Assembly (NCBI GenBank): GCA_031430615.1
Contig: JANPBV010000071.1
Coordinates: forward strand, 1 to 37,996
Length of the DNA stretch: 37,996 nucleotides
Source: Ignavibacteria bacterium
GTDB lineage: Bacteria > Bacteroidota > Ignavibacteria > Tepidaquicellales > OLB5
Reading direction: 5' to 3'
Part shown: positions 218-31,045 of the stretch, one piece after another
How positions within the stretch are numbered: position 1 is the stretch's first letter
Layout: every line of letters begins with the position of its first letter
Translations under genes and position numbers: made by a program
Notes under the pieces: generated by a model
What the model saw: the letters and a program-made list of their open reading frames with translations, nothing else
Databases searched by the model: none
Told to the model about the DNA's origin: nothing

Positions 218-1657
218 TTATGAGTGTTGTAATTCCTTTGTTTCAAGTTCCGAGAATTTATCCCAGAACCAGCCTGTACAGCTTACGCTATGAACTTTTG
301 CAAGTTGTATCTTAAATTCAGAGACCCTGCTGTAGTCATCCTTTATTTTCATTTTGATGAGATAGTTTAAAAATTTTATAAAACTCCTGTATTCAGATCT
401 TTTGAATTCAGGGATTTTTTTATCATTTGATAAAACGTGTTTGTATGAATCGATCAGCGAGATGAGCGGCTCGGTATCATCGAGTTCATAATAAACCCGC
501 AGCATGTAGCAGTAAACATCAAGCTTATGATAATACCCGTTGAATTTCAGCTTGCTTAAGCTTTGCATAGATTCGTTGTAATCTTTCCTGAAGAAGCAGA
601 GCATTGCCATAGAAAAGTTAAGGGTGTTATCGCGGTAACTGGGCTCTATTTCAAGGATATAACAGCATATAAAATTTTCAACCCAATCAAATTTTTTTAA
701 CCTGATACCGGTTCTTACAATATTGAGAAAAAGAGTTGGATGCATAAAATTTTCTATCTTAAATACATCTTTTGAAAGCTGCATTCTGTACATGTCAAAC
801 AATTCGGTTACATACAATGAACTGCCATTATCCAGTATTTTTCTGTAGTAATTGTTCATTACAAAATACGCGTTGTAAATATCAAGTTTCTCGAGTGATT
901 TACTATCAGAAAGAATATTTTTTATGTTAAGCAGTGATTCTTTGTTCTCTTCGTAAAGCATTAACATGATAACATTATAGTAAAGCTGTATTGCAGGGAT
1001 ATCATCGTACCTGTTTACCTTTAGAAATAGAAGAATCTCATCAAGAAAATCAAGCTTATAATTTGAGTTTAATTCGTAGATCTGTTTATTAAGGATTTGC
1101 GTGTATCTCCTCAGTATTTTCAGGAGGAAGTATTTTATAAGGTAATTCGATTCGTTGAGAAGACTTTCATCGAACAGGAATTTATTTTTCTTTAAGAACT
1201 GTGTGTTCTTTTCAAGCTCAAGCGAGTGTTTGTAGTCAAGCATTTCCTCCGAGCCAAATGAATACTGAAGAGCGTCTTCTGCATCTCTATAGCTCTCTTC
1301 AAAATATTTATCAGCATTTCTTTTGTTAAGCTCGCTTATTAAATGTTTATTTTGCTCTAGCCTATCCTGTGTATAATTAATATAAGCAAGGAATTCAAGT
1401 ATTTTCACCGAAAGTTCCGAGAGTACTTTTCTCATCATGTTATCCCTGTATTTTTCATCGGGGAAAAGTGTTAAGTGCAGTGTTTGTTTTGTAAACTCAT
1501 CGCCCGAAAAATCAGGGTAATAGTTCTGCAATATGCCGTAAAGTTCAAGAAGCCTGCGGTTTTTGTTGTGCAAGGGCGAATCCAGGAACTCACCAAACAT
1601 TTTAAACTCCCTTTGATTAAGAATATACAATAGGTCTAATGCTTTACTTTTTATCAT
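218..1657 (-). CDS. uncharacterised ~480-aa all-helical (TPR-like) protein, putative regulator; paralog of 25180-26616
   Basis: 479-aa ORF, no signal peptide; aligns by eye with the 481-aa ORF at both ends (EF..F..F..S...NK; GWF..K..EL). Confidence 0.8.
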   Translation of the reverse strand: MIKSKALDLLYILNQREFKMFGEFLDSPLHNKNRRLLELYGILQNYYPDFSGDEFTKQTLHLTLFPDEKYRDNMMRKVLSELSVKILEFLAYINYTQDRLEQNKHLISELNKRNADKYFEESYRDAEDALQYSFGSEEMLDYKHSLELEKNTQFLKKNKFLFDESLLNESNYLIKYFLLKILRRYTQILNKQIYELNSNYKLDFLDEILLFLKVNRYDDIPAIQLYYNVIMLMLYEENKESLLNIKNILSDSKSLEKLDIYNAYFVMNNYYRKILDNGSSLYVTELFDMYRMQLSKDVFKIENFMHPTLFLNIVRTGIRLKKFDWVENFICCYILEIEPSYRDNTLNFSMAMLCFFRKDYNESMQSLSKLKFNGYYHKLDVYCYMLRVYYELDDTEPLISLIDSYKHVLSNDKKIPEFKRSEYRSFIKFLNYLIKMKIKDDYSRVSEFKIQLAKVHSVSCTGWFWDKFSELETKELQHS

Positions 1658-2108
1658 AAAATTATACTTAAATTTTTACACCGGGTATAAATACCATTAC
1701 TTGGCTACCGTAACAAAATTGAATTTTATTTTCGAAGAAACATCAAAAACAGACAAATTTTAGCGTTTTAAGCCAAAAAAAAGAATTTCGCGCCCATTTT
1801 TCATAGTGCACATAAGAAAAACTCTCTTTGCCAAATTAAACTCTTAAAACTATTTTATTAAAAATATTTATTGATAACGAAGGCTAAAACGAGGGCGGAA
1901 ATAATTACGAGGACTTAATGCAGAAAATTTCAATAACAAAGCTAAAGTAAGAACTGTGGAAACAAATTTAAAAGATTTAAATTAAATATCAAATACAATT
2001 GCACAGTAAAATATTTTTTTTCAACACCATTTAGTATGGATTTTAATTACAGTGAAATATAAGGCATATAAAAATTGCATCTAACACTTTAAAACTTTTT
2101 TAAATTTA

Positions 2109-2990
2109 ATGGAGGGGTATATAGTATTGAATATTAATTACTTTGTTTCAAAAGCCCGTAACACGTTTTTGTTTTCATTATTCATTTTATCGTTATTTTC
2201 AATCAGCACAGTTTTTTCGCAGGATTGGTGTAATCCGAACATTACCCAGACATTCAGTCACGGGATAAACTCGGTTGCTCTAAACGGCACACCACCACTT
2301 GAAAGGTTTTCGGGGAGGCTTGAAGGCTATGTTAATACAGGTGTATCAACATCACTTTCAAGAGGCGGTTCATATACTCTGACTATGGTACAGGGATTTG
2401 GCGCTTTTTGTACGGCTGGAAATTTGAGAATATGGATTGACTATAATCATGATTTCGATTTTGATGATGCGGGAGAATTGGTTGGCTCGATGGACCAGGT
2501 ATTTTCAACCGGACCGAATGTATTTAACTTTACTGTACCCAATACTGCTGTTCTTGGAACAACGAGGATGAGAGTTGGAGATAAAATGAGGGAAGCATGC
2601 GGTCACACGGGGGTTACACCCTGTAACGACCCGCCTGATCCTGCAGGTTATCATGGCGAGATGGAAGACTATGATATCATAATTGTTCTTCCGACCGGAA
2701 TTTCAAACGTAAGCGGTATTACACCGGAAAAATTCGGATTGTATCAGAATTACCCGAATCCATTTAACCCTGTTACAAATATTAAATTCGATGTTGCCTC
2801 GACATCACAGGTAAAAATTACAGTGTACGATCTGCTTGGCAATGAAGCTGCGCAGCTTGTAAATGAAAGATTGCCCGCAGGGACATACAAAACAGATTGG
2901 GATGCTTCAAGCTACCCAAGCGGTGTGTATTATTATAAAATTACTGCCGGTGAATATTCAGAGACACATAAAATGGCGCTGGTGAAATAA
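2109..2990 (+). CDS. GEVED-domain protein with T9SS type A C-terminal sorting domain
   Basis: signal peptide; WIDYNHDFDFDDAGE and GEMEDY motifs; QNYPNPFNP...KMALVK CTD; real start may be TTG 2127, downstream of GGAGG at 2111. Confidence 0.85.
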   Translation: MEGYIVLNINYFVSKARNTFLFSLFILSLFSISTVFSQDWCNPNITQTFSHGINSVALNGTPPLERFSGRLEGYVNTGVSTSLSRGGSYTLTMVQGFGAFCTAGNLRIWIDYNHDFDFDDAGELVGSMDQVFSTGPNVFNFTVPNTAVLGTTRMRVGDKMREACGHTGVTPCNDPPDPAGYHGEMEDYDIIIVLPTGISNVSGITPEKFGLYQNYPNPFNPVTNIKFDVASTSQVKITVYDLLGNEAAQLVNERLPAGTYKTDWDASSYPSGVYYYKITAGEYSETHKMALVK

Positions 2991-3098
2991 TTTCTGAATA
3001 CGAATAATTCTTAAGGACAAGGGTTACATCCTCATCGTTATTTTTTGACTTAACTTGGACTCCTTGTCCTTCAGGTTCGTAAATATTATACATTACTG

Positions 3099-3917
3099 AT
3101 GAAAAAATTCTCGGGCAGTTCAAAAAAAACAGCGATATACTTTATTATGTTTCTGGCAGTAACTGCTTTTTTAAGCTATGGTTATTTTGCGGGTATCAGC
3201 GGCAGAACAAAAAAGGGAGGGTTTACCGCAGGTTGTGAGTGTCATGGTAAAACCCCTTTTAGTAATGTGAATGTAGTTATATCAGGTCCTGATACAATTT
3301 CCCCCGGCGAGACTGTGAATTTCCTCCTGAGCATAACCGGGGGACCTTTAACAAGAGGCGGAACCGATATAGCTGTAATAAGAGGTACGCTGAATACAGT
3401 AACTGGTTCTGGTTTAAAAAAACTAGATGGAGAGCTGACACATGAGCAGCCAAAGGCGCCTGTTTCAGGGAATGTCAGTTTTCCGTTCAGTTATACCGCT
3501 CCTCTTACTGAAGGAACAGATACAATTTTTGCAAATGGCAATAGCGTAAATTTTGATATGCTTCCTTATAATGATAACTGGAATTTTGCCAATAATAAGA
3601 TACTCGTTATTAAAAACCCAATTGGTATCCATGTCATTTCTTCTGATACACCGGAATCATTTGAACTTGAACAAAATTATCCCAATCCTTTTAATCCAAC
3701 AACAAAAATCCGGTTCAGTATCCCGGCTTCTTCGGATGCAAATATTACGATCTATGATGCAGCAGGGATAGAAGTAACTACTCTCATAGATGAAAGGTTA
3801 ATGCCGGGATCTTTTGAAGTAGATTGGAATGCCTCAAATTATTCAGGCGGTATTTACTTTTATGTTCTGCGTTCCGGAAGTTTCAGGGAAACAAGAAAGA
3901 TGGTTCTTATAAAATAA
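3099..3917 (+). CDS. Reeler-like/choice-of-anchor V type protein with T9SS type A CTD
   Basis: signal peptide, GCECHG motif, LTH..PK and F.YTAP segments, QNYPNPFNP...KMVLIK. Confidence 0.75.
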   Translation: MKKFSGSSKKTAIYFIMFLAVTAFLSYGYFAGISGRTKKGGFTAGCECHGKTPFSNVNVVISGPDTISPGETVNFLLSITGGPLTRGGTDIAVIRGTLNTVTGSGLKKLDGELTHEQPKAPVSGNVSFPFSYTAPLTEGTDTIFANGNSVNFDMLPYNDNWNFANNKILVIKNPIGIHVISSDTPESFELEQNYPNPFNPTTKIRFSIPASSDANITIYDAAGIEVTTLIDERLMPGSFEVDWNASNYSGGIYFYVLRSGSFRETRKMVLIK

Positions 3918-4264: not shown

Positions 4265-5080
4265 ATGAACTATAGAACTTATATTCCCAACCCGGCACTA
4301 TCAAAATATATTAAGTGCTATTGGACACTGGAAAATCTTTACAAAGAGATCACTTTTTCGAAAGAGAAAGTTTTTCCTGATGGGTGCATTGAATTGGTTT
4401 TTCATTTTGGTGATTTATATAGAAAATATAAACGGGACGATTCAAGTGAACTAATGCCCAAAAGTTTTATACACGGTCAATTGAAGGAATTTATTGAAAT
4501 TGAAGCAACCGGGAAAACAGGGATTTTAAGTATTAGATTCCACCCGAATGGTTTAAGACCCTTTATGGCATTTGATATTAATGAGATTACAGGGCAAACA
4601 TTAAGCCTACAGGATCTTTGGGAAAAGGAAGGCGAAATACTTGAAGAAAAAATTTTAAATGCTGCATCTAATGAACATCGAATATCATTACTTGAGATTT
4701 TCCTGTTAAATAAATTGAAAAGAGCTGTAGAAAATGATAGCGTAATTGAACATTGCGTTAATTCAATAATTAAAAATGATGGAAACATTTCGATTAGCAA
4801 ACTTGCAAATAATCTGAATATTGGAAGACGCCATCTTGAACGTAAGTTTATTTCCATTGTTGGCATCAGCCCGAAATTACTTTCAAGAATCATTAGATTT
4901 CAAAATACGCTTAATTTAATTGAACATGAAAAATTTAGTAACTTAACTATGGTTGCTTATAAGAGTGGTTTTTATGACCAGGCTCATTTTATAAAGGATT
5001 TCAAAGAATTCACAGGACTCAACCCAAAGCAGTATTTCTCAGAAAATTTTCCTTTGGTAAAATATTTCAATTTAATGTAG
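4265..5080 (+). CDS. AraC family transcriptional regulator (DUF6597-type N-terminus)
   Basis: FPDGCIELVF N-terminal motif; C-terminal RHLERKF...GISPK and GFYDQAHFIKDFKEFTG HTH signature. Confidence 0.92.
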   Translation: MNYRTYIPNPALSKYIKCYWTLENLYKEITFSKEKVFPDGCIELVFHFGDLYRKYKRDDSSELMPKSFIHGQLKEFIEIEATGKTGILSIRFHPNGLRPFMAFDINEITGQTLSLQDLWEKEGEILEEKILNAASNEHRISLLEIFLLNKLKRAVENDSVIEHCVNSIIKNDGNISISKLANNLNIGRRHLERKFISIVGISPKLLSRIIRFQNTLNLIEHEKFSNLTMVAYKSGFYDQAHFIKDFKEFTGLNPKQYFSENFPLVKYFNLM

Positions 5081-6179: not shown

Positions 6180-6623
6180 ATGTCTATTAAAAATTTCTTC
6201 ATCGTATTGATAATAGCATTGGCTTCGTGTAACACAAAAGAAAATGAAGAGCTGAAAATGCAGGAGCAAAATGTGCTTATTGCGAAAAATTATTTTGAGA
6301 TATTTAATAAACACGATTGGGATAAAATGGCTGATTTTTATTCTGACCCAGCTGAATTTAAAGACCCATCGTTAGGTGAAGGAATTATAAAACAAACCCG
6401 GCAGCAAACAGCAGAAAAGTATAAGAAGTTAGCTGAGATATCCTCCGACATACGGGATGATATTATTCAACTGTATCCCTCAAAAGACAAATATGTAATA
6501 GTTGAATTTGTTTCATCAGGAACAGCGCCCGATGGCACAAAGTGGAAATTACCTCTATGCACTATTTTTACAATTGAGAATAAACAAATAACAAAGGACT
6601 TTACATACTACGATAATGAATAA
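6180..6623 (+). CDS. SnoaL/NTF2-like lipoprotein
   Basis: ATG 6180 gives lipobox LASC; FNKHDWDKMADFYS...ITKDFTYYD NTF2 pattern. Confidence 0.8.
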   Translation: MSIKNFFIVLIIALASCNTKENEELKMQEQNVLIAKNYFEIFNKHDWDKMADFYSDPAEFKDPSLGEGIIKQTRQQTAEKYKKLAEISSDIRDDIIQLYPSKDKYVIVEFVSSGTAPDGTKWKLPLCTIFTIENKQITKDFTYYDNE

Positions 6624-6727
6624 CTATAATAACCATAAAACATCACATAACTGCGGGTGAAGTGGAAGTATTAAATTTTATGCGTCTAAATCAACCGCTC
6701 TTAAATCCGCAAAACGCTGTAATTCTG

Positions 6728-7990
6728 TTATCCTATAACTTCAAATCCTGTATATTTATGCAATACTTTTGGAACAATAATTTTACCCTCAGGTGTCTGG
6801 CTGGATTCAATTAAAGATACATAAAGTCTTGAGGTAGCAAGTCCCGACCCGTTCAATATATGAACATATTCAGTCTTCTTATCACGTTTAAAGCGTATCA
6901 TAGCTCTTCTGGACTGGAAATCGGTGCAGTTGCTAACACTTGATGCCTCGAGCCATTTACCCTCGGCAGGTGACCAGACTTCGATATCATACTGCTTACT
7001 GGCAGCAAAACCCATATCACCCGTACAAACGTTTACAACACGATAGTGGATATTCAGCGCTTCCAAAATTCCAGTTGCGTGACCCAGCATTTCTTCCATT
7101 TGTGAATATGATTCTTCAGGCAGGCAGAAATTGATGAGTTCAACTTTATTGAACTGGTGTACCCGCAAAAATCCCTTGGTATCCTTGCCGTAGCTTCCTG
7201 CTTCCCTGCGGAAACAAGCTGTATAGCCGCAATACTTCACCGGCAAATTTTTTACGTCCATTACTTCATCACGGTGAATGTTCACAATAGGTACTTCGGC
7301 AGTTGGTATTGCAAACAGGTCATCAGGCTCGGTGCGGTACATATCTTCTTCAAACTTGGGTACTTTTTCGGCGGCTTCCATTGATGCGCGGTTTACAAGA
7401 TAAGGTACACCAACTTCAGTGTAGCCGTTAGCTTTGTGAGTATCAAGCATGAAGTTTATCAAGGCTCTTTCAAGCATTGCGCCTTTGCCTTTGTAAAAAG
7501 GAAAGCCGCTTCCTGATATTTTAGCGCCGATACCGAAATCGAGGATATCAAGTTTTTTGCCAAGCTCAACATGATCAAGATATTTAAAATCACCGGAAGC
7601 TTTATCTCCCCATATTTTGAACTGAACATTATCATCACTTGATTTACCTAACGGAACTGAATCTTCCGCAAGGTTAGGGATATCACGCTGGAAGTTATCG
7701 ATTTGCTTTTCTGCCAGAGCAAGCTTATCATCAATTGCTTTGATATCATCGGATACTTTCTTCATATCGGCAATTTTATCATCAGCATTAGCGCCGTCTT
7801 TTTTCATTTTGGCAATTTCCTGTGATACTGTATTTCGCAGGCTTTTGAGTTTTTCAACCTCACCTATATATTCCCTGCGTTTTACATCAAGCTCAAGGAT
7901 CTTATCTACCATATCTAAGGTCATATTGCGCGCCTGGAGCTTTTGTTTTATCAGCTCTGGGTTTTCTCTTATTACTTTTAGGTCTAACAT
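6728..7990 (-). CDS. serS: serine--tRNA ligase
   Basis: MLDLKVIR start, PTAEVP, FRREAGSYGKDTKGFLRVHQFNKVE, NGSGLA. Confidence 0.98.
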   Translation of the reverse strand: MLDLKVIRENPELIKQKLQARNMTLDMVDKILELDVKRREYIGEVEKLKSLRNTVSQEIAKMKKDGANADDKIADMKKVSDDIKAIDDKLALAEKQIDNFQRDIPNLAEDSVPLGKSSDDNVQFKIWGDKASGDFKYLDHVELGKKLDILDFGIGAKISGSGFPFYKGKGAMLERALINFMLDTHKANGYTEVGVPYLVNRASMEAAEKVPKFEEDMYRTEPDDLFAIPTAEVPIVNIHRDEVMDVKNLPVKYCGYTACFRREAGSYGKDTKGFLRVHQFNKVELINFCLPEESYSQMEEMLGHATGILEALNIHYRVVNVCTGDMGFAASKQYDIEVWSPAEGKWLEASSVSNCTDFQSRRAMIRFKRDKKTEYVHILNGSGLATSRLYVSLIESSQTPEGKIIVPKVLHKYTGFEVIG

Positions 7991-8077
7991 AATTTATATA
8001 ATTAGGAATTAACTGCCAGAGGCAGTCAAGTGAATTAAAAATTAGGAATTTTTACAACAAATTAAAAAAACAAATAA

Positions 8078-8170
8078 TAAGACTACAAAGGTCTGATATT
8101 ATTTCAATACATAAAAATATTATCATGTTATAACTGATCTACAATATACGTTAAGACTTTTGTAGTCTTA
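8078..8170. repeat. inverted pair of small palindromes (REPIN-like doublet)
   Basis: TAAGACTACAAAGGTCT (8078-8094) vs AGACTTTTGTAGTCTTA (8154-8170), 16/17 complementary. Confidence 0.6.
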
Positions 8171-8193
8171 CAACTTAGCTAATTACTTTTTTT

Positions 8194-8252
8194 GTGTCGG
8201 GAGGAAACTCCCGACGCCACTTCGTGTGGTGTCAGGACTTACGTCCGGACAC
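8194..8252. repeat. tandem GTGTC(A/G)GG palindromes, REP-like; may also terminate rfbD
   Basis: GTGTCGGGAG-GAAA-CTCCCGACGC and GTGTCAGGAC-TTAC-GTCCGGACAC. Confidence 0.6.
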
Positions 8253-8259
8253 GGTTAAT

Positions 8260-9165
8260 TTATAAGCCGAGCTGGACTTTCAGCAGGCTAAGTCCATCGG
8301 TTACATCAAGCGTTTTCAGGTCAAGGTCGGTTTCAGCTTTCAGCAGGATGAAGCTAGAGTTCATCGGTCTCAAGGCAGATTGGTTAAGATCACTGGTTTT
8401 AATTGGCTTTATAAGGTTTTCATTCAGCTCAAAAGCTTCAGCAAGTTTTATGGCAAACTCATACCTGCTTAAATATTCGCCGCCGCATATGTGATACAGA
8501 CCGGATTTATTCAGGTCAACCATTTTAACTAATGACCACCCAAGATCATCAACCATAGTAGGCATGCCAAACTGGTCATCAACAATTGTTACCTGATTTT
8601 TTTCAGAAAGCATATTAATAAGCCAAACGGCAAAGTTAGGTCTTAAATTCTTACCTGTTCCGTAAATTATCATAGTGCGTACAATTGCAAAATTTATTCC
8701 GCTTGTTATCAGCGCATTTTCACTGGCAAGCTTGCTTTTACCGTAATAGCTCAGAGGATTAGGTTTTGAGCTCTCGCTGTAGTTGCCTGATTTGCCGTCA
8801 AAAACATAATCAGTTGAAATGTGTATTATCTTTGATGAATTAACCCTTGAAGCGATTATAAAATGTTTTACTGAATCTACATTTACTTTCCAGCTCATTT
8901 CACGGTCAGTTTCACAGCCATCAACATTTGTGTAAGCCGCCGTGTTGATGATAATATCAGGAAGGTATTTTTTAACGGCATCCTTAACTTCTTCCTTTTT
9001 GGTTATATCCATTGGGAAGTAATCAAAGCCTTTAGAATCAAAAGCGTTATCATGCAGGTCTGTGAGTATAAGCTCGTGGGCTGATTCATTCCTGAATATT
9101 TCCGTGGCTTTTTGTCCCAGCAGTCCGTTTGCGCCGGTTACAAGTATTTTTTTAGGTTTGTTCAT
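8260..9165 (-). CDS. rfbD: dTDP-4-dehydrorhamnose reductase
   Basis: VTGANGLLG, HISTDYVFDG, YGKSK, VDDQFGMPT. Confidence 0.93.
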   Translation of the reverse strand: MNKPKKILVTGANGLLGQKATEIFRNESAHELILTDLHDNAFDSKGFDYFPMDITKKEEVKDAVKKYLPDIIINTAAYTNVDGCETDREMSWKVNVDSVKHFIIASRVNSSKIIHISTDYVFDGKSGNYSESSKPNPLSYYGKSKLASENALITSGINFAIVRTMIIYGTGKNLRPNFAVWLINMLSEKNQVTIVDDQFGMPTMVDDLGWSLVKMVDLNKSGLYHICGGEYLSRYEFAIKLAEAFELNENLIKPIKTSDLNQSALRPMNSSFILLKAETDLDLKTLDVTDGLSLLKVQLGL

Positions 9166-9169
9166 TTGA

Positions 9170-9222
9170 CCTCACCCCTTTACAAGGTTGTAAACCCAGC
9201 CCCTCTCCTAAGAGGAGAGGGG
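9170..9222. repeat. CCTCACCCC...CCCCTCTCCT/AGGAGAGGGG REP-like element with inserted hairpin
   Basis: 10-bp stem 9200-9209/9213-9222; internal TTTACAA-GG-TTGTAAA. Confidence 0.7.
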
Positions 9223-9245
9223 AGAGGATTATTTAAAAATTAATT

Positions 9246-10205
9246 TTAATCACTAAGTTTATGCAAGTCTTCAACACCGTGAAGAGATGCATTTAAGCTT
9301 GCCATTTTATTTGCGAAATTTAAAGCAAGATGCTCCTCACTCTGCTTAAACGCAGCATTTTTATAAAAGAAACTTGACGCAAAAACATCGCCACAGCCGG
9401 TTGAATCAACAAACATCGGACTATCTATCCTTGGCATATCTGTTCTATCAAGATCATAATATGATTCACCCGCTGCTTCTTTATGCATTAACCGGTACAT
9501 GCTTACACCTGAGCGGCCACGGGTAACTACAAGTGAACTTACTTTTTTATCCATCAGAATTTTTTCTGCTGTTTCATACTCAGTTACATTATCACCGGTA
9601 AAAATTGAAAGCTCTGATTCATTCATTTGTATAGTATCAGACAGTGAAACCCAGTTTTGCCAGTTTTTAACAGGCATTTGTTTTCTTGCGCCGTCGGGAA
9701 AGGTCTGCATTACAAGGTTATGAAGATCCATATGTATGTAACCTTTAAAATTATCACGTATCATTATAAAAGCATCAAGTGTGATATCTACACCGGATAC
9801 GAGATTAACCAAAATTCCATCCAAGGACCCAAGAAGATCCTTTACCTGTTCAAATTCCACAGGCAGCGTTGGCAGGGTTGAGTTTTCTTCTCTGTCATAA
9901 GTTTTCTTAGTCGATACATTCAGTATAGAATTCTTATCCTTATAAAACAGGTTAACAACCCTCGTCTTATGAGATGTTCTATTTATATAAGAAAGATCAA
10001 TATTACTGAAGGTACTTAAGAATCCGGTAATGTTATCAAATTCATCTTCACCTAAGTTCATTACAGGATAAACGGTTGCGCTGCCTTTTGAAATTACCGC
10101 AAGAGATACAAGAGAATACAAAATTCCGCCAAACTGTTTGGTTGTTGTTTCGCCCCCCCTGTGAATATAATCCATACATGGTTCACCAATAACTGCCAGC
10201 TTCAC
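9246..10205 (-). CDS. PfkB family carbohydrate kinase
   Basis: QMNESE, VVTRG, DSTGCGDVF signature; GTG start abutting the upstream stop. Confidence 0.85.
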   Translation of the reverse strand: MKLAVIGEPCMDYIHRGGETTTKQFGGILYSLVSLAVISKGSATVYPVMNLGEDEFDNITGFLSTFSNIDLSYINRTSHKTRVVNLFYKDKNSILNVSTKKTYDREENSTLPTLPVEFEQVKDLLGSLDGILVNLVSGVDITLDAFIMIRDNFKGYIHMDLHNLVMQTFPDGARKQMPVKNWQNWVSLSDTIQMNESELSIFTGDNVTEYETAEKILMDKKVSSLVVTRGRSGVSMYRLMHKEAAGESYYDLDRTDMPRIDSPMFVDSTGCGDVFASSFFYKNAAFKQSEEHLALNFANKMASLNASLHGVEDLHKLSD

Positions 10206-20490: not shown

Positions 20491-20531
20491 ATAACGAATT
20501 TAATGTAATATTTACAATAATTTAAAGGTAT

Positions 20532-20557
20532 AAAAAGCGGGAGATAATTCCCGCTTT
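20532..20557 (-). terminator. rho-independent terminator of the T9SS cargo cluster
   Basis: minus strand AAAGCGGGA-ATTATC-TCCCGCTTTTT, about 30 nt after the stop. Confidence 0.8.
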
Positions 20558-20588
20558 AAAATTACATAAGCTTAGCAAAGTTTAATTT

Positions 20589-22763
20589 TTATTTGATCAA
20601 AACCATCTTTCGTACCTCAGTGAAATCACCTGCAGTCATCCTGTAAAAATACACTCCGCTTGAAAGATGCGAGGCATTGAAATCGTAGTTATATGTTCCG
20701 GCACCCATAGTTTGATTTATCAATTCAGCAACTTCTCTGCCTGTGATATCAAAAATTTTCAGTGATACCACAGATGTTTTTGGAACTGAGAATCTGATGT
20801 TGGTTACAGGATTGAACGGATTTGGATAATTTTGTGAAAGCAAATATTGTTTGGGAATTTCATGGGTTGTTTGAGTAATCCCTATTGGTGTGCCGCCGTT
20901 TGTTGTTTTAAGAATAGTTCCTGCCTCACCGACAGCAAATCCAGTTGTAGAGTTAATAAATAATATTGAGCTTAATATATTATTCGTACCGGAGTTTTGC
21001 CTTACCCAGTTTAATCCACCATTTGTGGTTTTAAGAACAGAAGCATCGTTGCCAAGGTTTGTGCCGCAGGCGTAACCCGTATTGACATCGGCAAAACTGA
21101 TGCTGTATAGAGCATTCAGCGTAATCTGGGGAAGCTGAACCCAGTTTAATCCGCTGTTTGTTGTTCTGTACATAACGCCGTTTGAGCCTACGGAAACTCC
21201 GGTGTTTGCATTAATGAAGTCCACACCGAACTGTGTATCGAAAAATGCGCCTGAATTAACCTGAACCCAGTTAAGGCCGGCATTTGTGGTGCGGAATATC
21301 CTTCCTGCCTCGCCAACAGCAATACCTTTAGTTGAGTCAAGAAAGTACAGCTTATTTAAAGTCCATGTAACCCCGAAGATACTACTCCAATTCTGACCTG
21401 AGTTGGTAGTTCTTAAAATTACACCGAAGTTACCAACTGTAATACCTGTAGTTTGATTAAAGAAATGTAAATCATTTAAATTATTTGAGTTTGCAGTATG
21501 CTGAGTTACCCAGTTAATGCCGCCGTTGCTAGTCTTCAGAACAATGCGCTGCAGCGGGCTTGATTTACCACCCACGAGCCAGCCTGTCTGGCTGTTAACA
21601 AAAAAACCTGATTTAAGGTCGAGGGTTGTTCCGGTATTATATGTAGCCCATGTGTTACCTGCATTTGTAGTTTTAGAAAACAACCCGGAATTTCCTACAG
21701 CGAATAATGAGTCGCCATCAGAAGAATTAAAATGGTCATCATCATAATCATAAGTTGGAAACATAAGACTAAAACTCAATCTTATGGCAGTTTCGTCTGT
21801 CCATGTAACACCAGCATCAGTTGATGTAAGCTTTATTCCTTTCTCACCCCAGACAAAGATAAAATCAGGGGTAACGGGGGTATTGCTGGTTAAGTAAAGA
21901 TCAAACTGGGAAGGATGAGAATAAATTTCTGCCCAGTTGCTGCCTCCGTCTGTTGTTCTGAAAATCTTCCCGTTAGCACCTGTAGCAAGGGCGGTATTTG
22001 CATCAAGCATTCTTACATCATATAGGTCCTGGTTGGACCCTATTACCTGTAGATACCAGTTTACTCCTCCGTTTGTGGTTTTAAGCACTTTTCCATATGC
22101 TCCTACAATCATACCTGTATTGGCATTTGCGAATGAGAACCCGAAAAGATCTGCTCCTCCCGAAGGGTTAGTGACTTCTCCCCAAAAGTAACCTCCGTTG
22201 AAAGAATAAAAAATCTTCCCGTTTGTTCCAATTGCAAATACACCAATACCTACGGGCATATAAATAATCCGTTTAAAGTCAGTGTAGCCCGGACTGTTTA
22301 GGGTTTCGCTGAATGTTTCCCCTGAATTTGAAGAGGTAATAATTTTACCGTTATCTCCGCCGATTACAACATTATTGTTTTTTTTATCAATGCAGTTCAG
22401 GTTTGTATATCCCGGCGCATAGCTCACCCATATACCGCCCCCGTTTGTGGTAAGCCTTGCCCCGTCTTCACCTACTACAACAACCTTAAGTGAATTTTCA
22501 ATTACTATAATTTCATTTAATTCTTTCTCACCCACCGGCGTCATGGGAGTATATGTATTTCCGTTATCTGTTGACTTGAGCAGTGTACCATGCTCACCGC
22601 AAAGATAATCAGTTCCGTCCGGAGCAATTGAATGGCTGTAAATTCCGTTTCCCTGCGGTATTGGATTATACCACGTCCACCCTGAGCCTGAAGTTGATAC
22701 CTGCGCAAAACTGATTGAAACTAAAGAAATAGCTAATAAAGTGATGTATAATATATTTTTCAT
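20589..22763 (-). CDS. YCF48/BNR (Asp-box) beta-propeller protein with T9SS type A CTD
   Basis: signal peptide; many G..G.I.(K/R)TTNGG.NW repeats; QNYPNPFNP...KMVLIK. Confidence 0.9.
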   Translation of the reverse strand: MKNILYITLLAISLVSISFAQVSTSGSGWTWYNPIPQGNGIYSHSIAPDGTDYLCGEHGTLLKSTDNGNTYTPMTPVGEKELNEIIVIENSLKVVVVGEDGARLTTNGGGIWVSYAPGYTNLNCIDKKNNNVVIGGDNGKIITSSNSGETFSETLNSPGYTDFKRIIYMPVGIGVFAIGTNGKIFYSFNGGYFWGEVTNPSGGADLFGFSFANANTGMIVGAYGKVLKTTNGGVNWYLQVIGSNQDLYDVRMLDANTALATGANGKIFRTTDGGSNWAEIYSHPSQFDLYLTSNTPVTPDFIFVWGEKGIKLTSTDAGVTWTDETAIRLSFSLMFPTYDYDDDHFNSSDGDSLFAVGNSGLFSKTTNAGNTWATYNTGTTLDLKSGFFVNSQTGWLVGGKSSPLQRIVLKTSNGGINWVTQHTANSNNLNDLHFFNQTTGITVGNFGVILRTTNSGQNWSSIFGVTWTLNKLYFLDSTKGIAVGEAGRIFRTTNAGLNWVQVNSGAFFDTQFGVDFINANTGVSVGSNGVMYRTTNSGLNWVQLPQITLNALYSISFADVNTGYACGTNLGNDASVLKTTNGGLNWVRQNSGTNNILSSILFINSTTGFAVGEAGTILKTTNGGTPIGITQTTHEIPKQYLLSQNYPNPFNPVTNIRFSVPKTSVVSLKIFDITGREVAELINQTMGAGTYNYDFNASHLSSGVYFYRMTAGDFTEVRKMVLIK

Positions 22764-22821
22764 TTTTAAATACTCCTGGATAAATTATTTTATTTATATC
22801 CCCCGATTGACCGGGATTTCA

Positions 22822-22846
22822 GATTAAGTAACAAGGTTACTTAATC
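22822..22846 (-). other. 11-bp hairpin covering the stop codon
   Basis: GATTAAGTAAC-AAG-GTTACTTAATC; stop at 22837-22839. Confidence 0.7.
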
Positions 22847-24909
22847 AACAACATTTTTTTGGTTTCAGTAAAGTCTCCTGCTGTAAGCTTATAGAAATAT
22901 ACACCGCTTGAAAGATGCGATGCATCGAAATCATATTTGTAAATACCTGCATTCATCGTTTGATTTATAAGCTGTTCAACTTCCCTTCCGATTATATCGT
23001 AAACCTTAAGCGTTATCAATCCTGATTTTGGAATTGAGAATTTAATGTTTGTTACGGGGTTAAACGGGTTAGGATAATTCTGTGAGAGGCTGTATTTACC
23101 CGGAATTTGATTTGAAACAGGCGATATACCTATGGTATTTTCATCAACTTCAAAACGAATGCTCCACCTGTTGAGCATTCCGCTTTGACCGCCTGTATTT
23201 TTAATTCTGAGTATCCACTCGCCCTCTGCCTGATGCCCGCTGAATAACGAGAGCGGATGGTACGGCCTGAAAGATCCTGTAAAAGGCGCGCTTCCGCCGG
23301 TAATGGGTGAATCTGCTGAATCACTGAGCTCAGTCGATATAAAATTATCACCTGAGCCGCCCTGGTGATAAATGAGAGTATCAATAACGCCGTTGTGCTG
23401 AAGGTAAATCTCAAGGTCGCCATCCTGCGGAAAGATAATTGAATCAAGTGTGACGGTTACTTTTATAATGCCGGTTGCATCACCGTAATTTCCCCATGTG
23501 TGAAAAGCCCTCATGGTATCTATTACATCCATAAAAGGTGCAATAGCTTTCCTGTTAGTGCTTGTAGAAGTACCTGCAAAAGAATTAAACTTAACAGTCA
23601 GCATATCGGAAGAGTGCCCGGTAGTATCGCTTGAGCCGGTAACAACAATACCCTGGTAAGATATATCCATAGCGCTTGTAAAATCACTGAAGGTGCTGTT
23701 ATACTGCTGAAGATTTGCAAATCCTTCGTGATCAATTGAAACCAGCATAAAATTGTTACCCTGTCCAAATGCAGAATCGAATCCGGTCGCTGAAATATAA
23801 GCATGTCCCGAATTGCTGACTTTCATATCAGTCGGGATATTCTGTGAAGTAAAATTGCCCGTTCTGGAAGCGTAGGTGGTTTTCCATAAAAGCTGGCTCG
23901 ATGAATCAATACCGAGCACAAGCCCCATAAACTGGCTCATATTCGATTCATTACTGTATGCTGATACATAAATGAGATCGCCAATAGATTCAACATCACA
24001 CCCAATTGCAGTTCCGCCTGTAACAGGGCAGTCATACCTTGAAACCCATCTCTGGTCGCCATTTTTTTTATAGCAAATTGTGGTAATTCCAACACCGGTA
24101 CCTGTATTCTGGCACTTTCCTGTTATGTAAAGATCTTCTGTATAGATATTATGTCCAATCGATTCAGCTACATCTTCCTCGTTTGCTGTGCCGCCGTGTG
24201 TTCTTACCCAACCCAGGCTCCCTGATGCATTTATCATCAGGGTAATGTAATCTGTATAATTATTGCCGGTGTACCCTGTAACAAAAACTTCGCCTGTGGC
24301 TTTATTTACATACATATCCTTCGGCATTTGGATTTGGGGACTTTCATATTGTTTTCTCCACACCTCATTACCAAGCCCGGTATATTTTATCACTATGATA
24401 TCAAAATCTCCTGCAGGCGCTGTAGTAATTCCCATAACGTAAACGTTCCTGTTATTGTCGGTCATTATTTTCAAGCCCTGATCTGTAGCGTATCCTGTCC
24501 CAGTAAATTCTTTCATCCATCTTGTGCCGCCGGATTCAGTGATGCTCATTGTAAACATATCAATGCTGCTTGGGTTGCCGTTATTTACCGAACCGGTTAT
24601 GTACAAGTAACCCCAGGAATCAGCTGTGATGGAATTAGCATTATCGGAGCCGCTATCCGGTGCATTGAATCTATAAGCCCATTCCTGCGCTCCTGTTTTA
24701 AGGTCATACTTGATTATTGCCAGATCTGTATTTGTGCCCTGCCCCCAAGATGAGCCGGCAGCATATACTTTGTTGTTCAGGATCTTAACAGCTGCTGCGT
24801 AATCAAGGTTATGCGCCTGTCCGTCATACCTTTTAACCCAGCTTATCTGTGCAAACAAGGAGTTTGCCGCGAACATTAAAGTGATTAATGATAAAATTAA
24901 TGATTTCAT
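22837..24909 (-). CDS. SBBP-like beta-propeller + proprotein convertase P-domain + T9SS type A CTD
   Basis: signal peptide; D..G..Y(I/V)TG and IKY...G...W repeats; DLEIYL...GEWILRI...LNRWSI P-domain; QNYPNPFNP. Confidence 0.85.
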   Translation of the reverse strand: MKSLILSLITLMFAANSLFAQISWVKRYDGQAHNLDYAAAVKILNNKVYAAGSSWGQGTNTDLAIIKYDLKTGAQEWAYRFNAPDSGSDNANSITADSWGYLYITGSVNNGNPSSIDMFTMSITESGGTRWMKEFTGTGYATDQGLKIMTDNNRNVYVMGITTAPAGDFDIIVIKYTGLGNEVWRKQYESPQIQMPKDMYVNKATGEVFVTGYTGNNYTDYITLMINASGSLGWVRTHGGTANEEDVAESIGHNIYTEDLYITGKCQNTGTGVGITTICYKKNGDQRWVSRYDCPVTGGTAIGCDVESIGDLIYVSAYSNESNMSQFMGLVLGIDSSSQLLWKTTYASRTGNFTSQNIPTDMKVSNSGHAYISATGFDSAFGQGNNFMLVSIDHEGFANLQQYNSTFSDFTSAMDISYQGIVVTGSSDTTGHSSDMLTVKFNSFAGTSTSTNRKAIAPFMDVIDTMRAFHTWGNYGDATGIIKVTVTLDSIIFPQDGDLEIYLQHNGVIDTLIYHQGGSGDNFISTELSDSADSPITGGSAPFTGSFRPYHPLSLFSGHQAEGEWILRIKNTGGQSGMLNRWSIRFEVDENTIGISPVSNQIPGKYSLSQNYPNPFNPVTNIKFSIPKSGLITLKVYDIIGREVEQLINQTMNAGIYKYDFDASHLSSGVYFYKLTAGDFTETKKMLLIK

Positions 24910-24927
24910 TATTTGATTCTCCTTTTT

Positions 24928-25042
24928 AAAATTTCAGGACAGCCTTCTGAGGTCATCGGGGCAATTCCGATGCAGCTAAAAATTTCTGCTGCGGTGACCT
25001 TTAATGCTGTCCTGTATAAAATTTTCAATTACGGAATTGCCC
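24928..25042 (-). promoter_or_regulatory. candidate structured 5' UTR (multi-way junction with alternative pairing)
   Basis: CAGGACAGC/GCTGTCCTG, AGGTCA/TGACCT, GCAGC/GCTGC, CATCGG/CCGATG stems, plus GGGCAATTCCG/CGGAATTGCCC. Confidence 0.6.
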
Positions 25043-25058
25043 TTTCCTTAAATCTGCT

Positions 25059-25091
25059 CAAACATACATTTTAATTAGAGGGTTTTGCAAA
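25059..25091 (-). promoter_or_regulatory. Bacteroidota-type primary sigma promoter
   Basis: TTTG (25091-25088)-N21-TATGTTTG (25066-25059). Confidence 0.6.
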
Positions 25092-25179
25092 GAAAAAATT
25101 GTATATTTGCACCTTAGAATAGCTACATTATTGTTGATTTAGGTATATCTTTAACATAAATAGCCGTAAATTGCATCTT

Positions 25180-26616
25180 ATGATAAGCCATAATTTAATA
25201 GTAATTTTAAGTGGATTTAGTAAGAGTGAATTTTTAAAGTTCGATGATTTTGTTAATTCATCGTATTTCAATAAAGAGCAGCAGGTTAAACTGCTTTGGA
25301 GCAATCTTAAAGGATTCTCTCCTGATTATAGTAACATAAAAAAAGAGGATATTTTCAGAAAGATGTATCCGGGAGAAAATTGTGTTGAAAGCAGGATAAG
25401 AAATCTTTGCTCAGACTTAAAGATGCTTGCCGAGAAATTCCTGATGGTTGAGGCTTTAATGAATGACAAAAGCGGAAGTGAAATTTATTTGCTTGAATCA
25501 TTTATTGCAAATAGGCATTACGATCTGTTTAACAGTAGATATGAAAAAGCTTATTTACGGAATACAGATATTACCCTGCAGGATGAATGGAGAATAGAAA
25601 ACAGCCTAAAACTAAACAACCTGAAGTATGCATATCTTAATGCGGGAAACGGAGAAGCTGAGGAAAATGAAGAGGTTTTTAAAAAGATAAACCAGGAATC
25701 GGTTAAGTTTTTTCTTTCAGTATACTTTAAGAACTGCCACAGGATACTGAATAAACGAAGAGCTTTTTTTAAATACGGCTACATGCCTAAGTATTTTAAG
25801 GAAGCATGCGAAATTTTAGAAAGTAATATTGAAGAGCTAAAAGACGAAACATACCTGCTGCTTCAGTATTATGCAGTAATGCTTTATATGTACTATGACG
25901 TGAAAAATTTCCATGTTTTATATGACTTTATCTTTGAGATTAATTTTGACAAGCTGGGAAAGGGAGATGTTACAGATATAATTATAGCTTTAGTAAATTA
26001 CTGCCGAACCGAATCATTAAGCGGGGATAAACAATACGAGTATAAAGCATTAGAGTTATATAAATTAATGAGCAATAATAATATTTGGGACAGTGAAAAC
26101 CTCCTCAGACCCTCGGTTTACAGGGCAACTGTAAGCGTTGCATGCAATTGCTGTGATTTTGAGTGGGCTGAATACTTTATCAATAAGTTCAAAAATTTTC
26201 AGCCGAAAGAACATATTGAAAGTAACAGCAACCTTTGTTACGGCAGACTTTACTTTGAAAAAAAGGAGTTTAGTAAAGCCCTGGATGCGCTTGCAAAGGC
26301 AGAGGCACTGGATTCAACCTACAAATATGAGGCAGATACACTTACAATAAGAATATTTTATGAAACATCTGAAACAGAAGCGTATATATCTAAAGTAAAT
26401 TCATTTAAGAAATGGGTAACCAATAACAAAACTGTAATTTCGGAAAGATACAGAAATATATTTAAGAAAATGTCGGGCTATTTTTCTCTGCTTATCAAGC
26501 TGAAGCTTGAGCCTGATGAATTTGCCGCGCAAAAAATGAAATCTGAAATTGAAGAAAACAAAACACTAGTTAACCGCGGGTGGTTTCTTGAGAAAATAAA
26601 TGAGCTTTTAATGTAA
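25180..26616 (+). CDS. uncharacterised ~480-aa all-helical (TPR-like) protein, putative regulator; paralog of 218-1657
   Basis: ATG 25180 aligns with the paralog start; TPR-like LYFEKKEFSKALDAL; C-terminal GWFLEKINEL. Confidence 0.8.
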   Translation: MISHNLIVILSGFSKSEFLKFDDFVNSSYFNKEQQVKLLWSNLKGFSPDYSNIKKEDIFRKMYPGENCVESRIRNLCSDLKMLAEKFLMVEALMNDKSGSEIYLLESFIANRHYDLFNSRYEKAYLRNTDITLQDEWRIENSLKLNNLKYAYLNAGNGEAEENEEVFKKINQESVKFFLSVYFKNCHRILNKRRAFFKYGYMPKYFKEACEILESNIEELKDETYLLLQYYAVMLYMYYDVKNFHVLYDFIFEINFDKLGKGDVTDIIIALVNYCRTESLSGDKQYEYKALELYKLMSNNNIWDSENLLRPSVYRATVSVACNCCDFEWAEYFINKFKNFQPKEHIESNSNLCYGRLYFEKKEFSKALDALAKAEALDSTYKYEADTLTIRIFYETSETEAYISKVNSFKKWVTNNKTVISERYRNIFKKMSGYFSLLIKLKLEPDEFAAQKMKSEIEENKTLVNRGWFLEKINELLM

Positions 26617-26661
26617 AAGCGCTGGATATCAAATGACCATGCAAAAGATATTTCTTTATTC

Positions 26662-31018: not shown

Positions 31019-31045
31019 TAATCAAGTAACTCCGTTACTTGATTA
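31019..31045 (-). other. 12-bp hairpin covering the stop codon
   Basis: TAATCAAGTAAC-TCC-GTTACTTGATTA; stop at 31035-31037. Confidence 0.7.

Follow-up and report, generated by a model that had tools for sequence, protein, structure and literature searches.

The window analysed here, by which we mean the whole stretch of 37,996 nt (Ignavibacteria bacterium, GCA_031430615.1, contig JANPBV010000071.1, positions 1-37,996; the genome to which it belongs is labelled G000), raises the question of what two long proteins without a named family, P0001 and P0002, are doing beside the genes that they face, each being encoded divergently from a pair of genes for proteins that carry a sorting domain of the type IX secretion system (T9SS). 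Our data lean towards a family of dimeric, sequence-specific DNA-binding regulators, in which each protein would read both copies of a paired box upstream of its own gene, autoregulate, control the divergent promoter and use the variable middle of its tetratricopeptide repeat (TPR)-like body as a sensor.

In both modules the family gene is divergent from a pair of co-directional genes (Table 1), and all four facing genes encode a T9SS type A sorting domain at the C-terminus, ending within a few residues of it, with scores of 35.7-47.8 bits for TIGR04183 (cut-off 23 bits) and 35.3-48.5 bits for PF18962 (cut-off 27 bits). Aligned end to end, P0001 and P0002 are identical at 109 of 483 positions (23%, E 1e-24), P0002 scores 432 bits with the hidden Markov model (HMM) of the family, and neither translation, read directly and not with a predictor, begins with a hydrophobic, signal-peptide-like segment. 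The start codon preferred for P0002 in Table 1 is favoured by alignment to the N-terminus of the family. The original prediction, which was made from the letters of the window, had described the same layout as occurring twice, with two full-length but divergent paralogs lacking signal peptides, and this description is borne out by the open reading frames (ORFs), their end-to-end identity and the four cargo genes above the cut-offs.

The arrangement recurs across G000 (3.53 Mb in 527 contigs, 94.9% complete). Within a non-overlapping set of 3158 ORFs of at least 90 aa, a crude set made without a gene caller, an HMM of the sorting domain that was built from the four cargo proteins of the window and then iterated marks 287 genes (9.1%; hereafter CTD genes, for C-terminal domain), which is an unusually large secretome for a genome of 3.5 Mb. 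A divergent upstream neighbour is found for 31 of the 37 family genes whose neighbour is known, compared with 565 of 2601 other genes (p 3e-15), and that divergent neighbour is a CTD gene in 16 of the 37 against 41 of the 2601 (odds ratio 48, Fisher p 2e-18); the excess is also seen when divergent pairs alone are compared (16/31 vs 41/565, p 6e-10). Enrichment of divergent T9SS cargo was the point on which the original prediction had beforehand staked itself, and it is found genome-wide. Among the 15 divergent neighbours that are not CTD genes, seven have a signal-peptide-like start by a crude pattern and three more by eye, and two are cut by contig ends; four further upstream neighbours are family genes in tandem. 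Downstream neighbours are enriched in cargo too (11 of 33 for the family, 193 of 2591 for others), and at least some of these belong to the next module, in arrays of the form cargo< family> cargo< family>. The pairing also recurs in distant lineages, sampled at two Saprospiraceae loci and in three further genomes of the phylum: of 20 family genes there, 18 have a divergent upstream neighbour, which is a CTD gene in 10 cases and a signal-peptide-like gene in 6.

The spacers between family gene and neighbour hold pairs of direct repeats, first spotted by eye and then scored by taking, from the 150 bp upstream of each start codon, the best direct repeat whose copies are 40-110 bp apart. The median score is 10 for the family and 8 for 376 controls with divergent neighbours (Mann-Whitney U test, p 9e-6), and 8 of 32 family loci lie above the 95th percentile of the controls, whereas short-range direct repeats (8-45 bp) are not enriched (p 0.17). 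The 17 repeats that score at least 10 are spaced by 53, 64, 66, 74, 74, 75, 75, 76, 76, 76, 85, 87, 93, 97, 97, 98 and 98 bp, and these spacings share a phase (Rayleigh R 0.79 at 11.0 bp) to a degree that none of 2000 draws of control spacings attains, even if the best period between 8 and 14 bp is chosen for each. With a period of 10.7-10.8 bp the phase comes close to zero, and the box spacings thus correspond to whole helical turns. The proximal box starts at -10 to -38 in 16 of the same 17 loci, and a WTGY core stands in register in 19 of 36 family boxes from G000 and G134 taken together, against 5 of 87 control repeats (p 2e-8). The boxes differ from locus to locus, as in locus C429 (TAATCGCAAAT twice, 75 bp apart) and locus C336 (TACCTGACC twice, 74 bp apart) of G000, and those of at least 12 nt are confined to their own spacer in that genome, apart from one box common to a couple of near-duplicate loci and an additional copy of the C415 box.

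With period and phase fixed from G000, the signal is found again in G134 of the same genus (score p 2e-7; V-test p 3e-6 to 6e-6, n=19) and in G155, a genome from a different family within the order (score p 0.003; V-test p 6e-4 to 4e-3, n=15). In five pairs of orthologs from G000 and G134 (52-88% protein identity), the boxes are shared and stand out as conserved islands while the rest of the spacer has diverged, and in four of the five the automatic top repeat is the same box in both genomes, with spacings of 97/97, 64/65, 75/76 and 97/101 bp. The paralogs within G000 are mutually 22-32% identical and, judging by this divergence, are ancient and not recent copies; at 22-32% protein identity such features are not expected to persist in unconstrained spacer DNA. 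In the window itself, the pair of module 2 (TTGCACCTT and TTGCATCTT) is 64 bp apart, a spacing within the family-wide series, and a 44%-identical relative in G128 has TTTGTATCTCA twice upstream at a spacing of about 65 bp, counted by eye.

Promoter-like elements place these boxes more closely. When upstream regions are aligned on the corrected family start codons, CAAAGA occurs in 22 of 32 family regions compared with 32 of 446 control divergent regions, and on the cargo strand this reads TCTTTG, followed after about 19-21 nt by TAnnTTTG (25 TCTTTG/GCTTTG occurrences in 23 family loci, motif-aligned), which we take to be a Bacteroidota-type -33/-7 promoter. In 10 of the 23 loci that carry the motif, the cargo-side -33 box is positioned at -107 to -113 relative to the family start codon, so that the distal box sits between two back-to-back promoters. 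In module 2 the -33 box is the reverse complement of 25088-25093 and the -7 box, TATGTTTG, that of 25059-25066, a position that predicts a 143-nt leader for cargo 2a. This predicted leader (24910-25052, minus strand) folds into a multi-stem structure (-39.5 kcal/mol, z -3.74, none of 200 shuffles as stable) that may be a leader-level control element; no second copy of the structure was found in G000 and no Rfam family in the window. The spacer of module 1 contains a -33-like TCTTTG (1825-1830, plus strand), a weak -7-like TATTTTAT (1851-1858) and the palindrome GTGCAC (1806-1811), as well as islands conserved with the 63%-identical ortholog of G128.

The predicted fold is that of a TPR-type solenoid preceded by a small helical domain. 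The AlphaFold model of P0001 (29 sequences; predicted local distance difference test, pLDDT, 87.8; predicted template modelling score, pTM, 0.77) is all-helical with 23 helices, and its helix pairs form a right-handed solenoid, as in TPR repeat proteins. Foldseek gave no match to the whole model in the PDB at E 1e-3 or better (best E 3e-3). An exhaustive structural aligner placed first the Rap protein of phage phi105 (8rte_B, Z 16.3, root-mean-square deviation (rmsd) 5.2, 286 aligned, residues 137-479), followed by Rap/NprR matches at Z 15.3, 14.7, 14.5 and 14.0 (residues 103-479 overall); 174 chains reach Z of at least 8, nearly all of them TPR-type proteins among the matches listed. The family profile, searched against PDB sequences, matched only designed consensus TPR proteins (profile positions 331-370, E 1.1e-6). 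The N-terminal 130 residues, modelled alone, again consist of helices only (pLDDT 93.9), and their best match by the same aligner is region 4 of sigma-H (3mzy_A, Z 5.9, rmsd 2.4, 70 aligned, residues 14-99). Among the best 50 chains, 40 are titled sigma region 4 or response-regulator, ToxR, LuxR or Fur DNA-binding domains, a recurring DNA-binding theme that is suggestive, and the proteins may thus be described as an N-terminal helical domain weakly like sigma region 4 or OmpR cores, followed by a Rap/NprR-like TPR solenoid.

The original prediction had expected a winged helix-turn-helix (HTH) domain of the OmpR or SARP (Streptomyces antibiotic regulatory protein) type, followed by TPR-like helices. 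The TPR-like helical body stood, whereas the winged HTH did not: neither model has beta strands in residues 1-130, and hence no wing, and Trans_reg_C (PF00486, E up to 1) and BTAD (PF03704) gave no match. Membership in the OmpR/SARP group fails because both the profile and the wing fail to match the family proteins. OmpR-type structures (CadC, ArlR, AdeR, GlnR, PhoP and others) do occur among the N-terminal fold matches, at Z 4.4-5.4, rmsd 2.4-4.5 and 55-75 aligned residues, under the caution level of the tool, and AfsR stands at rank 46 (Z 4.5, rmsd 12.7). The sigma-70 region 4 profiles (PF08281/PF04545) had no Pfam match in P0001 or P0002 either. Residues 56-82, the segment to which the original prediction had drawn attention, comprise a helix (57-64), a seven-residue loop and the start of a further helix (72-97), on which R76 and S80 are conserved while adjacent positions vary. 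Across 35 full-length paralogs, residues 1-100 and 320-479 are well conserved and residues 120-320 poorly so. A homodimer model scored 0.67 (best of three controls 0.00), with at least 84% of contacts in agreement between runs and a partner pLDDT of at least 82; among proteins of known structure, 20 of the 30 that were solved as pairs of one chain attain this mark, as does 1 of the 23 solved as single chains, and resemblance to TPR dimers of known structure may have contributed to the result. The predicted interface takes in residues 5-30, 87-122 and 162-215, whereas helix 57-64 and the first half of helix 72-97 stay outside it.

The family genes and their cargo also turn over together. Relatives at E 1e-90 or better are found for P0001 in one of the 29 other genomes of the taxonomic family (63% identity, partial) and for P0002 in three of the 29 (42-45% identity); ordinary genes of the window show genus-level identities of 71-76% (M1 peptidase) and 88-89% (amino-acid permease). 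At the slot between this permease and this peptidase (20491-26661 in the window; L035 of G139, L036 of G134), a family gene adjoins the peptidase, with cargo genes at its side, in all three genomes. The slot family genes of G139 and G134 are 64% identical to one another and 25% identical to P0002, and the slot cargo of those two genomes resemble the window cargo (the protein encoded at 31035-35735, outside the slot, included) over segments of 89-197 aa only. At this one slot, the putative regulator and its cargo have been replaced together at a fixed chromosomal position, an observation relevant to the diversification of surface and secreted repertoires among species.

No Pfam or NCBIfam family matched P0001 or P0002; P0002 has a TPR_2 hit at 356-383 (14.8 bits, below the 27-bit cut-off) and P0001 lacks even that, while Pfam searches of 29 family members gave weak ARM_TT21 in four, ARM_TT21_5th in one and nothing else. 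Source annotation of the relatives reads only 'hypothetical protein', the language-model neighbours of the family are unnamed Ignavibacteriota and Bacteroidota clusters, and no paper on such a family was found among the titles and abstract openings of the literature. A profile search of G000 recovers 41 family ORFs, 35 of them at least 440 aa long (38 ORFs by single-protein search), and a complete genome of the same genus holds 49 copies, in keeping with the uncharacterised, strongly expanded family that had been predicted. Genomes of relatives contain the family in 40 of 41 cases (genus 20/20, taxonomic family 24/24, second family of the order 15/16), many with at least 39 copies each. In an even sample of the phylum it is present in 4 of 121 genomes, G000 included, and a scan of species-representative genomes added five loci, four of them from metagenome-assembled genomes titled Saprospiraceae. 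Among 1.84 billion representative public proteins there are 12,698 matches at E 1e-3 or better (representatives at 50% identity) and 7,878 at E 1e-30 or better, and the best 150 matches to the family profile are all 445-499 aa long. Fused or split forms were found neither among proteins of 30-262 aa (residues 1-115 as query) nor among those of 840-2395 aa, in single-query, word-based searches that are weak evidence. Three genomes of the genus that are poor in the family (6, 8 and 16 matches) have 178-215 first-look CTD candidates and two rich ones 304-338 (best 150 scored), which is only a hint that family and CTD genes co-expanded. G000 has just 13 matches to ECF (extracytoplasmic function)-type sigma region 4 and 4 OmpR-type matches, and with 41-49 copies the family, if it is regulatory, would be the largest regulator family in these genomes, with a part of the very extensive T9SS secretome of Ignavibacteria under its control. 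Tandem pairs or arrays of family genes, some 1-50 bp apart and with no cargo between them, occur on contig C306 of G000 (6423-9403; 24301-27271) and at loci L041, L042 and L044 of G079.

In the mechanism that we propose, the conserved N-terminal helical domain (about residues 1-100) would bind DNA, the first part of the TPR-like solenoid would form the dimer and its hypervariable middle (about 120-320) would sense a locus-specific signal. The binding sites of the protein would be the paired copies of its locus-specific box, 8-17 bp long and frequently with a WTGY core, ahead of its own gene, one just 5' of the start codon and the other 5 to 9 helical turns upstream, beside the -33 box of the divergent promoter. 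One dimer would occupy both boxes, probably forming a DNA loop across the promoter of the regulator and thereby autoregulating, and the box-bound dimer would also switch the adjoining gene, whose product is secreted by the T9SS or exported in some other way. Regulator and cargo would be inherited and replaced jointly as a cassette. That the family protein is the box binder we infer, together with the direction of regulation and the nature of the signal. The original prediction had spoken of one-component regulators of adjacent secreted proteins; the phased, locus-specific boxes and the joint replacement at one slot lend support to this, with the DNA binding itself still a prediction.

Several observations weigh against such a regulator. 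At most 27 of the 287 CTD genes adjoin a family gene. The box signal is weak in G142 (score p 0.19; phase borderline, n=6, p 0.05-0.06), and at the 20 distant-lineage loci (G079, G067, G071 and Saprospiraceae) box scores and spacings are like background. In the window, the pair of module 2 scores 9, near the control median of 8 and not above controls taken alone, and P0001 has no notable pair, its best direct repeat scoring 7; two TTGT-containing islands in module 1, at -99 and -59, are 40 bp apart and off the helical phase. Paralogs and orthologs share ancestry, so that counts of loci are not independent. As regards the fold, generic TPR proteins reach Z 10-13.2, only 1-3 units under Rap/NprR, and helical repeats do reach such scores; the best N-terminal match (Z 5.9) is under the caution level of 8, Foldseek with the N-terminal model gave no match (best E 0.61), the N-terminal profile reached E 0.12 at best against PDB sequences, and hhalign of the N-terminal alignment gave probabilities of 0.2% against nine sigma region 4 segments of G000 and 0.5% against three of its OmpR-type domains. 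The N-terminal domain is the part most conserved among paralogs, which is not the simplest expectation if paralogs read different boxes, and orthologs that share a box show no greater similarity in residues 66-86 (0.70) than elsewhere (0.56-0.69). Part of that domain also lies in the predicted dimer interface, and a two-fold symmetric dimer, as modelled, has no obvious fit to direct repeats. The weak link is the step from box to protein, where both the family protein as binder and its DNA-binding fold are drawn from context and from a predicted structure.

On a first alternative reading, the protein makes no contact with DNA and serves as a TPR scaffold or adaptor that partners, for example, a sigma factor, RNA polymerase or a different regulator; some other factor would occupy the boxes, and the gene pairing would reflect co-expression or a post-transcriptional role in making the exported neighbour. 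We consider this unlikely, though deserving of serious weight: no HTH is detected at the sequence level, the N-terminal fold match is within the range of noise, TPR proteins typically bind other proteins, and the conserved N-terminus, its near-invariant S27-P28 loop included, falls in the predicted dimer interface, as would suit a protein-protein surface. The boxes, however, are locus-specific and the long ones unique in the genome, so that one shared second factor could not read them all, and the family protein is the only locus-specific gene product at hand. Divergent genes with back-to-back promoters are the classic layout of a DNA-binding regulator and its target. Moreover, it is the Sec route that takes T9SS cargo across the inner membrane, and for this no dedicated chaperone in the cytoplasm would be expected.

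An RNA-binding helical-repeat regulator, similar to pentatricopeptide repeat (PPR) or TPR proteins and acting on its own 5' leader or on long cargo mRNA leaders, is in our view distinctly improbable. The proximal box, 10-38 nt before the start codon, is probably transcribed, the predicted cargo leader of module 2 is long and strongly structured, and designed PPR proteins are among the whole-model fold matches (Z 10.3-10.8), but these score under the TPR receptors, the probable promoter of the family gene is downstream of the distal box in the loci inspected, and a spacing of whole turns of about 10.7-11 bp is a property of double-stranded DNA and not of RNA. It is hardly credible that the direct repeats are recombination sites at which the protein helps to exchange regulator-cargo cassettes between slots. 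Replacement of the cassette at a conserved slot, very fast turnover beside flanking genes that are 71-89% identical and the tandem arrays of family genes would agree with mobility; yet no nuclease, integrase or transposase family was matched in the Pfam and NCBIfam searches, the helical-repeat fold has no evident catalytic site, recombination between repeats 53-98 bp apart would irreversibly delete the promoter, and the paralogs appear ancient.

How, then, does the putative regulator compare with known systems? By its sequence it is a member of none, and it appears to combine an RRNPP-like build with AraC-like site geometry and the genomic logic of locus-dedicated regulators in Bacteroidota. 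As in the RRNPP receptors (Rap, NprR, PlcR, PrgX, AimR), the proteins seem to be cytoplasmic and to place a small N-terminal helical domain before a TPR-type solenoid, Rap and NprR being their best fold matches and a dimer being predicted, and many divergent paralogs per genome are each tied to a neighbouring gene for an exported product. They differ in that none of the RRNPP families in Pfam resembles them in sequence (AimR is a language-model neighbour, but a weak one, at 0.75), in being about 100 aa longer than Rap or NprR, and in having large T9SS cargo proteins, not propeptides, as neighbours. No RRNPP-type propeptide gene was seen: the spacer ORFs of 20-58 aa have no signal-peptide-like start (judged by eye at the two window loci only), and downstream of 26616 in module 2 the 45-bp gap leaves no room for one. 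The hosts are Ignavibacteria or Bacteroidota, whereas RRNPP systems are assigned to Gram-positive Firmicutes and their mobile elements (PMC10075063). It is improbable that the family is a Gram-negative counterpart of these peptide receptors, the hypervariable TPR groove of each paralog sensing a peptide from its own neighbouring secreted protein, such as a sorting domain or propeptide cleaved during type IX secretion; were this so, each cell would hold 40-50 private feedback or cell-to-cell channels, in cassettes swapped between species as units.

AraC acts as a dimer whose two DNA-reading domains sit on direct-repeat sites whole helical turns apart, with an in-vivo periodicity near 11 bp. The family shares with AraC looping the direct-repeat sites in helical phase, the divergent promoters and the proposed autoregulation and control of the neighbour, but it has no AraC/XylS HTH (no PF12833 or PF00165 match), and its loops, suggested by the spacing alone, would be 53-98 bp compared with about 210 bp for araO2-araI1. 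Direct repeats are also read by OmpR-type proteins. The winged-HTH proteins of the SARP/OmpR group with BTAD/TPR extensions (AfsR) likewise set TPR-like helices behind a DNA-binding-like helical core, but the family models have neither the beta hairpin wing nor the N-terminal beta sheet, and the hhalign probability is the 0.5% given above. The regulators of polysaccharide utilization loci (SusR-like and hybrid two-component) resemble the family in having one regulator per locus, many paralogs, a matched box pair in the spacer and co-inheritance; they are, however, membrane-spanning proteins with recognisable LuxR/AraC-type HTH or two-component domains, encoded upstream of and co-directionally with the target, whereas the family proteins appear soluble, match no known DNA-binding family and are encoded divergently from their cargo. 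New here are the genome-wide statistics, the locus-specific pairs of phased boxes with their recurrence in other genomes, the footprints shared by orthologs, the model of the dimer and the slot replacement. Locus-specific box pairs would amount to dozens of orthogonal protein-operator pairs per genome, which could be used to derive a DNA-recognition code or to build orthogonal switches.

Table 1. Coordinates of the two modules in the window, with their cargo genes, spacer elements and family members.
Feature	Position	Strand	Description
Family member 1, P0001, 479 aa	218..1657	-	N-terminal helical domain (about residues 1-100), then TPR-like solenoid; ORF and translation
Divergent spacer, module 1, 451 bp	1658..2108		No convincing box pair
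Cargo 1a	2109..2990	+	Signal-peptide-like N-terminus; GEVED PF20009 60 bits; PF18962 43.6 bits; TIGR04183 42.2 bits
Cargo 1b	3099..3917	+	Choice-of-anchor V NF041895 141.3 bits; TIGR04183 35.7 bits; PF18962 35.3 bits
Cargo 2b	20589..22763	-	Ycf48/BNR-type beta-propeller PF14870 110.5 bits; PF18962 48.5 bits; TIGR04183 45.2 bits
Cargo 2a	22837..24909	-	SBBP propeller PF06739 37.7 bits; P_proprotein PF01483 21.4 bits; PF18962 45.7 bits; TIGR04183 47.8 bits
Stem-loop structure in predicted cargo 2a leader	24937..25013	-	RNA fold
Cargo-side promoter, module 2	25059..25093	-	TCTTTG (-33), 21 nt, TATGTTTG (-7)
Distal box TTGCACCTT, module 2	25107..25115	+	At -73 from ATG; direct repeat of proximal box
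Proximal box TTGCATCTT, module 2	25171..25179	+	Immediately 5' of ATG at 25180
Family member 2, P0002	25180..26616	+	Longest ORF 481 aa from TTG at 25171; ATG at 25180 likelier start

Other motifs of the spacers are more restricted. A GGAAT-N10-14-TGTTT motif is found upstream of only 2 of the 41 family genes, both on contig C306, and a terminator scan showed no excess over shuffles (3 vs 2.9; 8 vs 5.0). In a search of distant lineages with a strict promoter pattern, matches on the cargo strand were confined to L046 (G067) and to L035 and L036, two loci of the same genus; L033 and L048 have the pattern on the strand of the family gene itself. The palindrome GTGCAC is present in 8 of 32 family spacers and in none of 446 controls. 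It is rare, with 102 occurrences in G000, of which 27 are intergenic and 10 of these lie in five spacers that adjoin family genes (window 1806-1811 and contigs C347, C412, C445 and C500), and it is often paired 11-32 bp apart, at or just past the cargo-side -7 box. The eight family genes with GTGCAC within about 250 nt upstream belong partly to one subclade in a quick, unfinished tree (5 changes vs 7.3; 11 of 500 shuffles as low). GTGCAC may be an operator or part of a leader.

The remainder of the window is ordinary chromosome, including genes for seryl-tRNA synthetase, UvrA, ThyX, RmlD and a lipid A acyltransferase. A 1566-aa protein (31035-35735, minus strand) has a BNR_assoc_N domain and a T9SS sorting domain, with no family gene beside it. 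Just 3' of module 1 (4265-5080, plus strand) lies a gene whose AraC-type product bears DUF6597 at its N-terminus; DUF6265 and SnoaL-like genes come next, and together these look like an ordinary, separate regulatory unit.

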